From Octopus vulgaris (Eukaryota), in assembly GCA_951406725.2 (NCBI GenBank), contig OX597814.1, positions 55,614,001-55,678,000 of the forward strand: 64,000 bases of DNA, written 5' to 3'. The position numbers and the translations under genes were made by a program. Within the stretch, counting starts at the first letter, position 1, and each line of letters opens with the position of its first letter. A model generated the notes under the pieces. The model had not been told where the DNA came from. It saw only the letters and a list, made by a program, of their open reading frames with translations, and did not search any database. This document shows positions 5,066 through 31,901 of this stretch, piece after piece.

Positions 5066-5362
5066 CTTTTACTTGTTTCAGTCATTTGACTGCGGCCATG
5101 CTGGAGCACCACCTTAAAAGTTGATTTAGTCAAAGAAAACAACCCCAGGACTTATTCTTTGTAAGCCAGTACTTATTCTGTCAGTCTCTTTTGCCAAACC
5201 ACTAAGTTGTGAGGATATAAACACCAACATCTATTGTCAAGCGATGAAGGTGGACACACACACATGACTGGCTTCTTTCAGTTTCCCTCTACGAAATCCA
5301 TGCAATGGAACTAAACCCAGAACTATGTGGTTGGGAAGCAAGCTTCTTAGCATATAGCCATG
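5066..5362 (-). mobile_element. SINE family A, internally deleted
   Basis: Same tail and head motifs, reversed. Confidence 0.8.
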
Positions 5363-5437
<75 letters not shown>

Positions 5438-5596
5438 TCATCATCATTATCATCGATTAACGTTCATTTTCCATGCTGGCTTCGGTTGGACGATTTAACT
5501 GAGGTCTGGAGAGCCAGCGGCTGCACCAGGCTCCAATCTGGTCTGGCAGAATTTCTATAGGTTGATGCCCTTCCTAAAACCAATCACTCTGAGAGT

Positions 5597-5630
<34 letters not shown>

Positions 5631-5803
5631 GTGTATAATATGCAATTTCTTGCAGAGCCAAGTGGAATTAAGTCTTTTGCTCAAAAACACAGGACATTAC
5701 CTGGGATGAGATTTGAAACCATGCTCTCATGATCATGAGTGCATCATCCAAATGACTAGGCTACACATACACACACACACACTAACACACACTCTCTCTC
5801 TCC

Positions 5804-5860
<57 letters not shown>

Positions 5861-5959
5861 TTGGTCTGAATTAGCTTAACAAGGAATGATGTTAAGTTTA
5901 AACTGGAGGAGGCTAAATTGATTAATCTCTGCTGAAATTATAGTACCATATTCTTTGGA

Positions 5960-15892: not shown

Positions 15893-18298
15893 TGTAGCAA
15901 ATTACAAAACAACTGTCATCTCACCTTTCACTCCACTTTTCTGGAACCTAGTAATAAGGAAAAACTGAAGATAATCAATCTTTCAACCAAACCTCTTTCT
16001 AACATAAACATTGACATCCTCTCAAAAGGGCTCAAATTTACACCAACTCCACGCAGAGCCAACCTAAATGAAATCAAGGATAATATAACAGAATTTTGCA
16101 GAAAATTAAGACTAGCAGAAGCATCAACCAGTTTCAATACTGAAGATGAATCACTAGTCAAGAACAAAAGTGAACACATCCCCCACAGAGGAAGAAATAA
16201 AGATCTTGACGAATTCTGTAACCACATTGAGAACTTTCCCTACCATACTATACATAAACAGAAAGTTAACTCAAATTTTAACACTACACAATGGAAGGAA
16301 CTGATAGAACTTCAAAATGATGAAGATATAACCATTAAGGAAGCAGACAAGGGAAATGCAGTTGTAATAATGGATACATCATACTATAGAAATCTTGTAA
16401 TTTCCTTGCTTGATGACAACCAACATTATGAAAAAATTACCAACTACACCCCACAAAAAATAATGAAAACTCTATCTTCACTAATTAAAACCCATGAAAA
16501 GGAACTAACAACCAAAGAGATTGACTTTCTAACAAACTTTAAATGCAAACCTAGCCTCTTCTATGGTCTGCCAAAAATTCATAAAAGCCAAATTATAAAT
16601 GAAACCATTAAAAAATCACCAAAGACATACATACACACACCTAACCCAGGGGACCTAAAACTACGACCCATTGTAGCTGGCCCAACCTGTGAAACACACA
16701 GACTAAGTCTATTTATGGACATCCTCCCGAAACCCTTACTTAAACATATCGATAGCCATATCAGAGATGACTTAGATATGTTAAACCACCTTCCAAAAAA
16801 AGCCAAGGAAGAAACAATCATGGTTTCATTTGATGTAGTTAACTTATATACCAGTATACCTCATAATTATGGACTAGAGGCAATACAGTTCTGGCTGGAC
16901 CAATTTCCGGAAGAAACACCAAAAAGGATCAGTAAAGAATTCATTACTAAATCAATTGAATTCATCCTACATAATAACCACTTCATGTTTGACAATACAT
17001 TTTACTGTCAAAAATCCGGAATTGCTATGGGTACAAGGGCAGCACCAGTCATTGCGAACCTAACAATGGGCTACCTGGAAATAATCATTTACCAGGAATC
17101 TTTATCAATCTTTGGAAACCCCCTCTCTCAATACATAAAAGAGAATTGGAAACGATTCTATTTTATACTCTGGAATGATAAACTCCTAAAATTTAAAAAC
17201 CTATTGAACAGCATAAACCCAAATATACAGTTCACAATGGAATACAACCAAAAGGAGCTCCCATTCTTGGATATACTAATTAAAAAAATTAACCTTAAAA
17301 TAGAAACAGACATCTTTTACAAAGCCACAGACGCCAAACAATACCTTCTTTTTAATTCATGCCACCCAAGACACACTAAAACAAACATCCCCTTCAACCT
17401 TGCAAGAAGGATATGCACAATAGTGTCAGAACAAAATACCAGGAACTTTAGACTGCAAGAACTCAAAAACACCCTAATTGACAGACATTACCCAGCTCAA
17501 CTCATAGAGGATGGGATCAGACGTGCAACAGAAATCAACATAGAAACTTTAAGAAAAGTTCAACACATCAACACACCTTCCCCGAAAATACTACCTTACA
17601 TATCCACATACAACCCCAGAAACAAAGAAGCCTTCACCATCATCACCCAGAATTTACCAATACTTCATAAGGACCCCAAACTAAAGGAAATTCTAAACAT
17701 ACACCAAATCATTAAAAGCTACAAACAACCTAAATCACTTAAAAAGATTCTCACAAAGGCAAAATTGTTTTCTGAAATTACGGATGCAAAAGTAAAAAAA
17801 TGTGGTAGACCGAACTGTGCAACATGTCGATACCTACTAGAAGGATCAGAATTCCTCTTCAAAGAGGGACAGAAATTCAAGATCAAATCTAATTTTACTT
17901 GTGCCTCTGAAAACATAATTTACGTCATAAAATGCTCGGGCTGCCACCAAGACTACGTGGGGTCCACGGGACTATCACTCAGATGTAGATGCACACTGCA
18001 TCGACAACAGATTGCATTCCCAGAATACAGAATGATACCCTTTAGTAAGCACACTGAGAAATGCGCAAAGCAACTACTACCACAATTTTTAATCTTTCCA
18101 TTTTACCAATGTGCTATTGGAACACCAACACAAATTAGACTAAACAAGGAAACATTCTTCATTGAAAAATACAAGCCCAAACTTAACCATTCCAACATAC
18201 TTTTACAGAGAAATTCACTCCAAAAGAAAGGAAAAAAAATTTTAAGCGATTATCTCCCTTACACCAGAAGAAATCACTTATTACCTCCCCTTATCTAG
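15893..18298 (+). CDS. Penelope-like retroelement ORF (RT + GIY-YIG endonuclease, Neptune/Naiad-type), 5'-truncated, RT motif C deleted
   Basis: Frame is open from 15893, well upstream of the listed ATG at 16370. Contains IINLS...LSKGLKFTPTP, the PLE DKG motif IKEADKGNAVVIM, FYGLPKIHK, LRPIV, motif A SFDVVNLYTSIP, motif B QKSGIAMGTRAAP, LPFLDI, Cys linker CGRPNCATC and GIY-YIG IIYVIKCSGCHQDYVGST. Confidence 0.95.
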   Translation, partial: CSKLQNNCHLTFHSTFLEPSNKEKLKIINLSTKPLSNINIDILSKGLKFTPTPRRANLNEIKDNITEFCRKLRLAEASTSFNTEDESLVKNKSEHIPHRGRNKDLDEFCNHIENFPYHTIHKQKVNSNFNTTQWKELIELQNDEDITIKEADKGNAVVIMDTSYYRNLVISLLDDNQHYEKITNYTPQKIMKTLSSLIKTHEKELTTKEIDFLTNFKCKPSLFYGLPKIHKSQIINETIKKSPKTYIHTPNPGDLKLRPIVAGPTCETHRLSLFMDILPKPLLKHIDSHIRDDLDMLNHLPKKAKEETIMVSFDVVNLYTSIPHNYGLEAIQFWLDQFPEETPKRISKEFITKSIEFILHNNHFMFDNTFYCQKSGIAMGTRAAPVIANLTMGYLEIIIYQESLSIFGNPLSQYIKENWKRFYFILWNDKLLKFKNLLNSINPNIQFTMEYNQKELPFLDILIKKINLKIETDIFYKATDAKQYLLFNSCHPRHTKTNIPFNLARRICTIVSEQNTRNFRLQELKNTLIDRHYPAQLIEDGIRRATEINIETLRKVQHINTPSPKILPYISTYNPRNKEAFTIITQNLPILHKDPKLKEILNIHQIIKSYKQPKSLKKILTKAKLFSEITDAKVKKCGRPNCATCRYLLEGSEFLFKEGQKFKIKSNFTCASENIIYVIKCSGCHQDYVGSTGLSLRCRCTLHRQQIAFPEYRMIPFSKHTEKCAKQLLPQFLIFPFYQCAIGTPTQIRLNKETFFIEKYKPKLNHSNILLQRNSLQKKGKKILSDYLPYTRRNHLLPPLI

Positions 18299-18505
18299 AA
18301 CTTTTCTCAACATAAACATAACGATAACTCTACTCAACGTAAACATAACGACGTAAGAAATTTGAAAAGCTGAACGCGAAACCGGTCATTTCTTCTAAAC
18401 TATGTCATTGTAAGAAAAAAATTTATAACATTCTTCAGACATATTGACTCATATATATTTTTTAACCTTTTAAAGCAAACCTTCTGTAGTTTTTTCACTT
18501 TTTAC
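15930..18505 (+). mobile_element. Penelope-like element, 5'-truncated, with 3' UTR hammerhead, followed by (TA)n
   Basis: ORF above plus about 200 bp of 3' UTR ending at a long (TA)n tract. Boundaries approximate. Confidence 0.85.
18355..18394 (+). ncRNA. Minimal type I hammerhead ribozyme, U3-A8 core variant
   Basis: AAGAAAT-TTGAAAA-GC(TGAAC)GC-GAAA-CCGG-TC-ATTTCTT: perfect 7-bp helix I, 2-bp helix II, palindromic ACCGGT helix III, in the PLE 3' UTR where minimal hammerheads are typical. Confidence 0.75.
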
Positions 18506-29314: not shown

Positions 29315-29398
<84 letters not shown>

Positions 29399-29509
29399 TT
29401 TATATAATTAAGAGAAATAACCTCTATTAAGTAATTCAATAGTGAAAGACTTTATCTATATCAGATAAATATTATTCAAAAAATCACTAAATTGAATTAA
29501 CATTAAATT

Positions 29510-29607
29510 GACTACGTGCGTTGCGTGATTATATCTTTAAATCGATAATAATAAAATTGATACCATTAAAATTTATTCGATTTAAAAATATAGCCACTCT
29601 TCAGGTC
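29510..29607 (-). ncRNA. Hammerhead ribozyme with ~73-nt helix II (GAAA mutated to GCAA)
   Basis: Minus strand: GAC-CTGAAGA-GTGGCTATATTTTTAAATCGA...TCGATTTAAAGATATAATCAC-GCAA-CGCACG-TA-GTC. Confidence 0.65.
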
Positions 29608-30556
29608 TAAAGTAATAAAATAAATGTATGTATCTTAACACATAATAAATGAATATAGAAATATACATATATTAACTATAAATAATCAAATAAAATATAC
29701 CAATATTAATGAAAAATAAAATCATAACTTATCTTATTGAATAATTCCAGTTAACTGAAATTTTAAAAGTTATACTTAGAACCTAGTGTTGCTAAGAAAT
29801 TTATCACGTAAATTGAAATCTAATGGAATCAAGTATAATTTAAATTGGGAGGTAGTTTGTAAAGCTAAATCTTATCGAATAGGTAATAATTTTTGTTTAC
29901 TATGTACAAATGAATTTATGGAGATATTATAAATCTAATAATAAAAAGTTGGTTAATTACAAGATGAGCGAATAATTAAATGTAGACATAAGTTAAATTA
30001 CTTATATAAGTTTAGCTAATTTGTGTATATATTTAAACCCTGATTGATGTTACTAATTTTTGTAGTTATAATTTGTAGTAGCATAATGAGCATAAATTAG
30101 CAGTAGATTATGTAGTGTGTATTACATAAGTGGAATAAGATTAAACCAAGATGTTTATAACATAAATAAATTGATGAATATAGATTAAGTTATCGAAATT
30201 TAGTTTATTTTATGTATTTTACGTATTTTAGTTTTCAATTATTGAGAATTTTGAATTTTTCCAGTAAACGGTATATTACATCTAGTTTATTTCTTATTTT
30301 CACAGCTAAAATACATTTTTCTATTTGTTTATTTTATAGTTATTATTTACGTCATGTTTTCATGTGACAAATCCTTAGGTTGTAAGTACAACGTTTAAAG
30401 TTTCAGTTAACAGGAATTCTTCAATAAGATAAGTTATGATTTTATTTTTCATTAATACTGTTATATTTCATTTGATTATTTATAGTTAAGATACGTATAT
30501 TTCTATATTTATTTATTATATGTTAAAATACATACATTTATTTTATTATTATTTTA

Positions 30557-30670
30557 GACCTGAAGAGTAGCTATATTTTTAAATTGAATTAATTTTAAAT
30601 CGAATTAATTTTAATAGTATCAATTTTATTATAATCGATTTAAAGATATAATCATGAAATGTGTATAGTC
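30557..30670 (+). ncRNA. Hammerhead ribozyme with extended helix II (sister copy)
   Basis: GAC-CTGAAGA-GTAGCTATATTTTTAAAT...ATTTAAAGATATAATCAT-GAAA-TGTGTA-TA-GTC. Core intact; a ~16-bp tandem duplication lies inside helix II. Confidence 0.65.
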
Positions 30671-31901
30671 AATTTAATATATATTTAATTCAGTGATTGT
30701 TTTTGAATAATATATATTATAGTATAATTTTTCTATATGATATAGATAAAGTCTGTCACTATTGAATTATTTAATAGAGGTTATTTCTCTTAATTATATA
30801 AATATATTATATATTGTGAAATTTGATTTGGAGTTGCTAAATTGAATTTTTCCCTGTAAGTTTGGAATTATATTCCCCACTATTATTATATACATACATA
30901 TATATATACATACATATATACATACACACATATATACATACACACACATATATACATACATATATATGCATACATACACACATATATATACACATATATA
31001 CATACATAGATAGATACACATGTATGTACATATATATATATATATACATACATACACATATACATACACACGCACATTTACACACATGCACATTTACACA
31101 CATATGCACATACACATATTTATATATTTTATTCTGGAGAGGGGTTGGCTCTTCTAGGCTTAAAAATGCCTCAGTCACAGTGTCTGCTATGGTGACACCT
31201 CTATAACTCTATCAGGAGTTGAGGGCCCAAGCAATGTCAGGCATGATCTATCTCCTATATTGTTTATTCATCTAAATATCATTAGAATAATTTTAATAAT
31301 GCAAACTAAGCTAGAATACTGGCTTAGGATGAGATTTACGCAATATTATCACAATTCATGGATGTGTATATTTAATTTATGCATATATAGCTTTGTCTAC
31401 AAACTGACACTTATTTAATTTTTAAAACAAAGTTTCTTGAGTATTACTATTCTGTAGTAAACAAATGTTACTGGTAAGTTCATACAGGCTGTATTAATAC
31501 ATGCAACCAATTGTTTCACTAACAAAAAATACTACACTTATAGATTTAAGAAGAGTATAATTTGAAAAAATTAATCTTCAATATTAATGAATACTTGCTT
31601 CAGCTAATATTGTTTTTATCTTCCATTTACAATAAAAAAGAAAAAATTCTAGTTATAACAGGTTAATAAAATACAGTATAGCAATAAGTAATCAGGAAAT
31701 TTATTTTGTTTGCTAAAGAGTTGAGTAGATCATTGGGACAAAGATATGAAAGTAGACATTAGAGATTATTTAATGATCTAGTAAGCCTTCACAAGAAACT
31801 TGTTAGAAATGAATTCAAGAAAGAACCATAGTCCCAGAATAATGCCAAAACTTTTGAAATAAAAATGTGTTAGATATATCAACTATTCATGCTTATTATA
31901 C

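Follow-up and report, generated by a model that had tools for sequence, protein, structure and literature searches.

Helix II length in the predicted hammerhead ribozymes of a Penelope-like element family of Octopus vulgaris

The foldback and its two hammerhead copies

A foldback at 29.4-30.8 kb of the window (the whole stretch of 64,000 nucleotides of Octopus vulgaris DNA analysed here) raises the question of whether a hammerhead ribozyme may carry a helix II of about 21 bp, and whether such a stem is peculiar to this locus or belongs to a family of elements. The original prediction placed a hammerhead core on both arms, and both are present, with GAAA on the plus arm and GCAA on the minus arm. 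The minus copy, a type I hammerhead read from the sequence and a pair table (29510..29607, minus strand), consists of GAC (29607-29605), CUGAAGA (29604-29598), GCAA (29524-29521), helix III ACGCACGU, A29513 and GUC (29512-29510), and encloses a helix II domain of 73 nt (29525..29597, minus strand), in which 20 of the 21 outer pairs are kept. The 21-nt strands quoted in the original prediction come from this arm and form 20 pairs (two of them G-U) with one C-A mismatch. The plus copy, also of type I (30557..30670, plus strand), consists of GAC (30557-30559), CUGAAGA (30560-30566), GAAA (30656-30659), U30666, A30667 and GUC (30668-30670). All 11 core bases are kept in it, as had been claimed, and the predicted cut after A30667 was correctly placed. 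The proposed helix II of about 73 nt fits the minus arm but not the plus arm, whose domain (30567..30655, plus strand; from the fold and the pair table) is 89 nt long owing to one extra 16-nt repeat and carries two 16-nt modules on its 5' side.

By the established requirements of hammerheads, both window copies are likely inactive. To regard the plus copy as a good candidate for activity was an overstatement: CpG-type decay has turned its helix III into AUGUGUAU, which is no longer a palindrome, with a self-duplex of +0.6 kcal/mol against -13.3 kcal/mol for the family majority. Moreover, its five basal helix II pairs (G-U, U-A, A-C, G-U and C-A) are all open in the predicted fold, pairs 3 and 5 being broken. 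The 89-nt domain is predicted to fold at -15.8 kcal/mol (z -3.06), while the whole plus ribozyme is no better than shuffles (z -0.61) and folds in another register. Thus, the plus copy proposed for testing (30545-30685) is likely inactive, and uncut RNA from it would leave the claim about the family standing. The minus ribozyme folds better (z -4.15; 0 of 200 shuffles as stable), but its core deviates at A13, which is C, and its helix III self-duplex reaches only -3.1 kcal/mol, the palindrome expected for dimer cutting being lost as in the plus copy. A dimer in cis is impossible, because the two arms lie on opposite strands.

The plus arm is a 5'-truncated Hydra-clade Penelope-like element (PLE) at 29811..30885 (plus strand), which comprises the C-terminus of an endonuclease, the 3' UTR/pLTR, the hammerhead and a tail. 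The endonuclease remnant, of GIY-YIG type, was recognised by three-frame translation (29810..30019, plus strand; natural stop at 30017-30019); it covers the last 70 codons, is frameshifted, and is identical at 24 of 38 positions to the intact 852-aa ORF of a relative, L074 (E 3e-13). The minus arm (29400..29812, minus strand) is a second copy of the 3' end (pLTR), inverted, 5'-truncated and without the tail: 363 of 403 aligned bases are identical to the plus arm, and the ends abut a (TA)n target microsatellite, which is plain in the sequence at 29333..29399. A TA/CA-rich repeat is found 3' of 30885 as well. The tail of about 70 nt (30815..30885, plus strand), against 30-40 bp quoted for PLEs, is confined to the plus arm; its motif is common to younger subfamilies too, and it is optional in family copies, whose 3' ends fall at two sites. 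In the Anolis element PAc, an optional tail was reported to come from two reverse-transcription start sites (Frangieh et al. 2024, PMC11167929).

By these sequence features, the foldback is a 5'-truncated Hydra-clade PLE joined to an inverted 3' copy within (TA)n. The inverted truncated copy, the (TA)n flanks and the tail on one arm have been published as a Hydra-clade layout (Craig et al. 2021, PMC8557442), and hammerhead pairs on opposite strands have been described (Cervera and de la Pena 2014, PMC4209133), so the foldback is ordinary; the window locus is an ordinary, old and broken fossil copy. A non-autonomous element of 1 kb was considered and rejected, since other copies run on into the endonuclease and the reverse transcriptase (RT). 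A non-LTR retrozyme, defined by tandem head-to-tail non-coding repeats each with a hammerhead (bioRxiv 10.64898/2026.07.22.740005), was also rejected, since the copies represent truncated ends, scattered in the genome, of an element that codes for protein, and the pair in the window is inverted.

The parent element and its family in the genome

A DNA search of the octopus genome (2.8 Gb) with the plus motif as query gave 433 first-look candidates, of which 40 were scored. In 7 of 29 other loci, a match of about 1 kb starts at 29811 with 80-89% identity. Several of the matching loci extend upstream into the endonuclease frame, and L032, of the same subfamily as the window, reaches further into a broken RT with SDETRN and other RT motifs. 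Copies of this subfamily show the linker CTCRDKTKC together with CLLC and CRH. The intact ORF of L074 carries RIKWK, DKT (SDKTRN), a CxCx5C linker, YIG, CxxC and CxH, and its ribozyme, with a spacer of 16 nt, lies about 240 nt upstream of the ORF. The features given for Hydra-clade PLEs are RWK-type and DKT RT motifs, the CxCX5C linker, CxxC/CxH and a GIY-YIG endonuclease (PMC8557442). The octopus family shows the RT and endonuclease ORF motifs, the Cys linker, (TA)n insertion, 5' truncation, an inverted copy and the optional tail; by these motifs, and with published Hydra proteins compared by eye, the parent element is assigned to the Hydra clade. Pfam gave no RT or GIY-YIG match for the L074 ORF. 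Pieces of more distant Hydra-like endonuclease/RT frames adjoin family copies at L038 (minus strand, oriented 5228-5896) and L042.

The window also contains a second, younger PLE family, with an 801-aa open frame at 15893-18298 (plus strand) that has a Cys linker, a GIY-YIG-like end and an RT match below the cut-off (Pfam RVT_1, E 1e-4). Its 3' end, for which 1557 first-look candidates were found in the same genome, bears a hammerhead-like motif (window about 18357-18394, plus strand; L275-L282) with a 2-bp helix II and the core UUGAAAA, identical in 8 of 8 copies. This core corresponds to the U3-A8 swap reported for Schistosoma (PMC4209133).

The long stem is not unique to this locus; it belongs to a series of helix II lengths that runs from 16 to about 105 nt. 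With the exact pattern CTGAWGA-spacer-GAAACGMKCGTAGTS, searched in the same genome in four spacer ranges with the reversed pattern as control, we found 505 matches at 4-30 nt, 1494 at 31-60, 469 at 61-90 and 45 at 91-120, the last count being slightly high since at least two of these matches visibly span the upstream core of a shorter motif. The total is 2513, against 0 for the reversed pattern in every range. The collected loci comprise 163 unique motifs in about 20 classes, with spacers of 16-119 nt. Logan contigs contain the family in runs of up to four organisms, with no molecule ends or informative joints among them, and a run search with the young relative L154 listed no run recorded as RNA. 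In subfamily A, that of the window, 37 copies were picked by the 5' half alone and the 3' half was found in 29 of them, with spacers of 41-97 nt (73 nt in 9, 89 nt in 5). As read from the sequences, the steps between the commonest lengths are direct-repeat modules of 15-16 nt, each containing TCGA, which indicates that modules are gained and lost while the outer stem is kept. Spacers of 19-69 nt occur in relatives that are young and abundant, so the extension looks like a tolerated feature and not a necessary one.

The family core (CUGANGA, GAAA, UH and a three-way junction) is found in the majority sequence and in the plus copy. All 11 core bases are intact in 20 of 31 rows (34 rows less 3 partial ones), and 19 of the 29 copies picked by the 5' half are intact as judged by the 3' core. 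Seven subfamily A copies with other letters before helix I were considered as spliced, but these letters are ordinary upstream sequence. Subfamily B as an inverted hairpin of A was rejected on inspection, since the orientation of the interior is kept. Three single copies (L181, L235 and L236) have unrelated spacers of 78-119 nt between intact cores, possibly later insertions into helix II. There is also a family, old and richer in GC, that combines the same cores with a spacer of 95-106 nt (L173-L175, L182, L188, L190-L193, L195, L196, L200 and L202; majority fold z -1.5), near which no endonuclease was found within 1.5 kb.

Length-limited searches had been expected to miss such motifs. Published PLE hammerhead searches used spacers of 7-17 nt for cores and 35-50 nt for half-cores (PMC8557442), and about 2000 exact-pattern copies with spacers above 30 nt in this genome are not covered by the core descriptor; a ribozyme may therefore exist in some PLE families that were scored as having none. 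Length is not the sole reason, since Rfam also gave no hammerhead match for L074 with its 16-nt spacer. The near-majority copy L273 gives an alignment to Rfam Hammerhead_1 in which the insert is treated as a local end, at 13 bits (E 3.7), below the gathering score of RF00163 (34 bits). Long and short members both fall below the Rfam threshold, which suggests a poor fit of the model to this lineage whatever the length. In the window, neither copy gave a hammerhead match at E <=10, and the Rfam matches that did appear were rejected as microsatellite look-alikes of miRNA models.

Folding, covariation and age of the extended helix II

The majority sequence of subfamily A has an outer helix II stem of 21 bp. 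The majorities of the long forms are predicted to fold at -27.7 kcal/mol (73 nt, z -8.8), -30.6 kcal/mol (89 nt, z -8.3) and -27.3 kcal/mol (93 nt, z -7.2). The fold compatible with a hammerhead is at most 0.5 kcal/mol less stable than the optimum in A73 and A89, and at most 0.3 kcal/mol less stable in B93. It lies 7-10 kcal/mol above the optimum in H44 and H68. Several extended majorities are no better than shuffles (F77 z -0.5, K105 -1.5, I39 -0.5, J37 -1.2, H44 -1.8). Helix III of the subfamily A majority is the 8-nt palindrome ACGCGCGU, with a self-duplex of -13.3 kcal/mol as expected of dimer-type hammerheads, and a perfect palindrome is found in 15 of 16 majorities, in three different sequences.

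Covariation, suggested at the outset as a check on helix II, is clear at the base of the stem, and the distal stem scores no better than shuffles. With one representative for each of 21 subfamily classes, 12 of 19 pairs of helix I, helix III and the basal 10 helix II pairs change on both sides. The score is 0.275 against 0.128 +/- 0.017 (0 of 500 shuffles as high; slid controls <=0.082), although it overstates independence, because the representatives are related and helix III and the 3' strand of helix I are partly fixed by the search pattern. Basal helix II pairs 2, 3 and 5 are invariant across the representatives, while short forms have U-A at pair 4, where extended ones show G-U, A-C or A-G. 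Thus, helices I and III and the base of helix II are supported by compensatory change. In the distal stem of 15 long copies, the score is 0.146 against 0.134, with 81 of 500 shuffles as high, although 87% of cells pair; 2 of 21 helix II pairs changed on both sides. Between subfamilies A and B, 4 of 21 pairs differ and pairing is kept at 3, including a change from C-G to A-U. The base of helix II is thus constrained, and the tip gives no covariation above shuffles.

The copies decay neutrally, with CpG change of 16-19% in every part (31 rows). When CpG sites of the 3' core were compared in sets each picked by the 5' half (30 loci per set), 35 of 156 had changed in subfamily A, 5 of 116 in forms with 19-30 nt, 1 of 72 in those with 34-50 nt and 3 of 48 in those with 67-69 nt. 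The 73-89-nt subfamily is therefore older than the compared ones with shorter spacers, and the 44- and 68-nt forms are about as young as the 19-30-nt forms among copies picked by the 5' half. The endonuclease and tail trees form a ladder from long to short helix II; the endonuclease tree, from which a row that matched the outgroup exactly was removed and in which another was reassigned to the outgroup, has an ambiguous root, and a single clade of long forms was not rejected (p-AU 0.27). Both the tail tree and a rank correlation of length with flank divergence (0.86) point to a monotone shrinkage of helix II, but this is not claimed, because the divergence of H68 is inflated by an A-rich tract, the root is ambiguous and the 44- and 68-nt forms are young. 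A-to-I editing of the hairpin left no trace: in 73 copies (B93 excluded), A-to-G changes were found at 18 of 1124 paired positions and U-to-C changes at 21 of 1238 (p 0.87).

Proposed mechanism, rival readings and known systems

We consider it likely that the locus is a decayed Hydra-clade PLE with a type I hammerhead in its terminal repeat. This hammerhead is predicted to act as a dimer, and its helix II, under constraint at the base, can probably be stretched at the tip. In the source element, the motif would occupy the same place as in L074, the pLTR 5' of the ORF. Folding would begin with the long AU-rich helix II, a hairpin complete in itself that closes the core and leaves it unblocked. 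Two ribozymes would then associate by way of their 8-nt helix III palindromes, and cleavage after GUA would probably be slow and aided by the protein of the element, in line with reports on other PLE hammerheads. Weak cutting, as dimers, is described for those with a short palindromic helix III (PMC4209133; review PMC6765202), and the Anolis PAc ribozyme needs protein and is dispensable for insertion in vitro (PMC11167929). Helix II may gain and lose its 15-16-nt modules by slippage, and source elements would be kept while the basal pairs survive. The foldback may have arisen when an inverted truncated copy was joined during insertion, and in read-through RNA its arms would pair and both motifs would be silenced.

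The extension could instead be a selected functional module, either a folding scaffold that offsets the 2-4-bp helix I and the mismatch at basal pair 4 or a protein-binding site. The change at basal pair 4 between short and extended forms, the pairing kept between A and B, the divergent inserts D and E that still fold (z -3.3 and -3.8) and the abundance of 31-60-nt spacers all fit this idea. We regard it as unlikely, however, in view of lengths varying from 41 to 97 nt within one subfamily, the youth of the 16-30-nt subfamilies (one with an intact ORF), distal covariation not above shuffles and the lack of an A-to-G excess over U-to-C. The same low probability applies to a bolder version, in which a single retrotransposon radiation has produced the natural length series (16 to about 105 nt, thousands of copies) and the long AU-rich stem works as a module, taking the place of the usual loop-loop contact or docking the protein of the element, with its length tuning the rate of cleavage.

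Less probable still is a relic, in which the long-stem motif was already non-cutting in the source elements and was carried because transposition needs no cleavage. PAc ribozyme mutants still insert and uncleaved RNA is reported as the main template (PMC11167929), and basal C-G pair 5, elsewhere invariant, is broken by a variant found in both window arms and three other copies among 37 loci, which indicates that some defective templates were copied. Yet the core, the basal pairs and the palindrome are kept across the 21 representatives, whose endonucleases differ by up to 40%, and helices I and III show changes on both sides. An origin by chance in AT-rich palindromic foldback DNA could be imagined from the low complexity and from the failure of Rfam at the window copies, but it is refuted by the family data, namely the 2513 matches against none in the control, the fixed position in the PLE terminal repeat and the alignment of a near-majority copy to the Rfam hammerhead, though at 13 bits. 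We thus return to the decayed PLE with a stretchable helix II.

The unusual length of helix II for a PLE stands up against published examples. File S2 of PMC8557442 has 26 Hydra rows, with 3-7 bp in stem II and loops of 3-10 nt. These hammerheads are like the octopus ones in the protein clade, the (TA)n target, the inverted 5'-truncated copy, the type I core near the 3' end, the short helices I and III and a first helix II position that is often unpaired, and differ from the 21 bp in a domain of 73-93 nt in octopus. By its predicted fold, the octopus helix II is about three times longer than published examples. The metazoan minimal and variant PLE hammerheads share the palindromic helix III, the predicted dimer cleavage, the opposite-strand pairs, a helix II longer than usual and a helix I down to 2 bp, but 'larger' there means 6-8 bp (7-8 bp in Schistosoma) and no 20-bp helix II is described in the available text (PMC4209133). 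Likewise, 'long helix II' means 6-8 bp in PMC13725137, and short stems II are stressed in PMC3088659. The largest helix II domain in File S2, about 53 nt, belongs to the spike-moss element PLE-X1_sMoe, which is also enlarged (9 bp with a 35-nt loop) and flagged as deviating, but is of another clade, GC-richer and described with no length series. Anolis PAc, a Poseidon element, resembles L074 in its pLTR ribozyme upstream of the ORF and the octopus family in the optional tail; it belongs to another clade, and protein-assisted activity was measured there, whereas the octopus ribozyme is predicted from sequence (PMC11167929). A full-text literature search gave no PLE hammerhead with a 20-bp helix II, though Lunse et al. 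2017 (PMC5785218) or the supplementary figures of PMC4209133 could hold long-stem variants. The element, the foldback layout and the hammerhead class are thus already known, and what is new is the long helix II and the family-wide length series. The value lies in this series and not in the window locus: the subfamilies are ready-made natural constructs for the relation of helix II length to dimer cleavage, and the series bears on the open question of the role of PLE hammerheads.

Finally, some copies differ on the 5' side of the ribozyme. Of 15 copies from younger Hydra subfamilies, 9 run on into GTAAGT (L081, L084-86, L088, L092, L098, L111 and L112), while the other 6 (L083, L087, L090, L091, L109 and L110) pass at that point straight into the ribozyme found 12-14 nt further on, and several other copies show an AG acceptor-like end there. 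An intron ending just upstream of helix I is thus likely in these subfamilies; the intron of Drosophila Penelope ends similarly. By a rough motif count, 31 of 55 copies of the 19-44-nt subfamilies have a short leader (about 20-30 nt) before the ribozyme, often directly after (TA)n (among them L096, L115, L119, L141, L208-L210 and L216), and none was seen in the long-stem subfamily copies examined. The short-leader copies probably derive from cDNA made on uncleaved RNA whose 5' end had been spliced. One contig, from a run only guessed to be RNA, spans the ribozyme of a young relative with a short leader in front.
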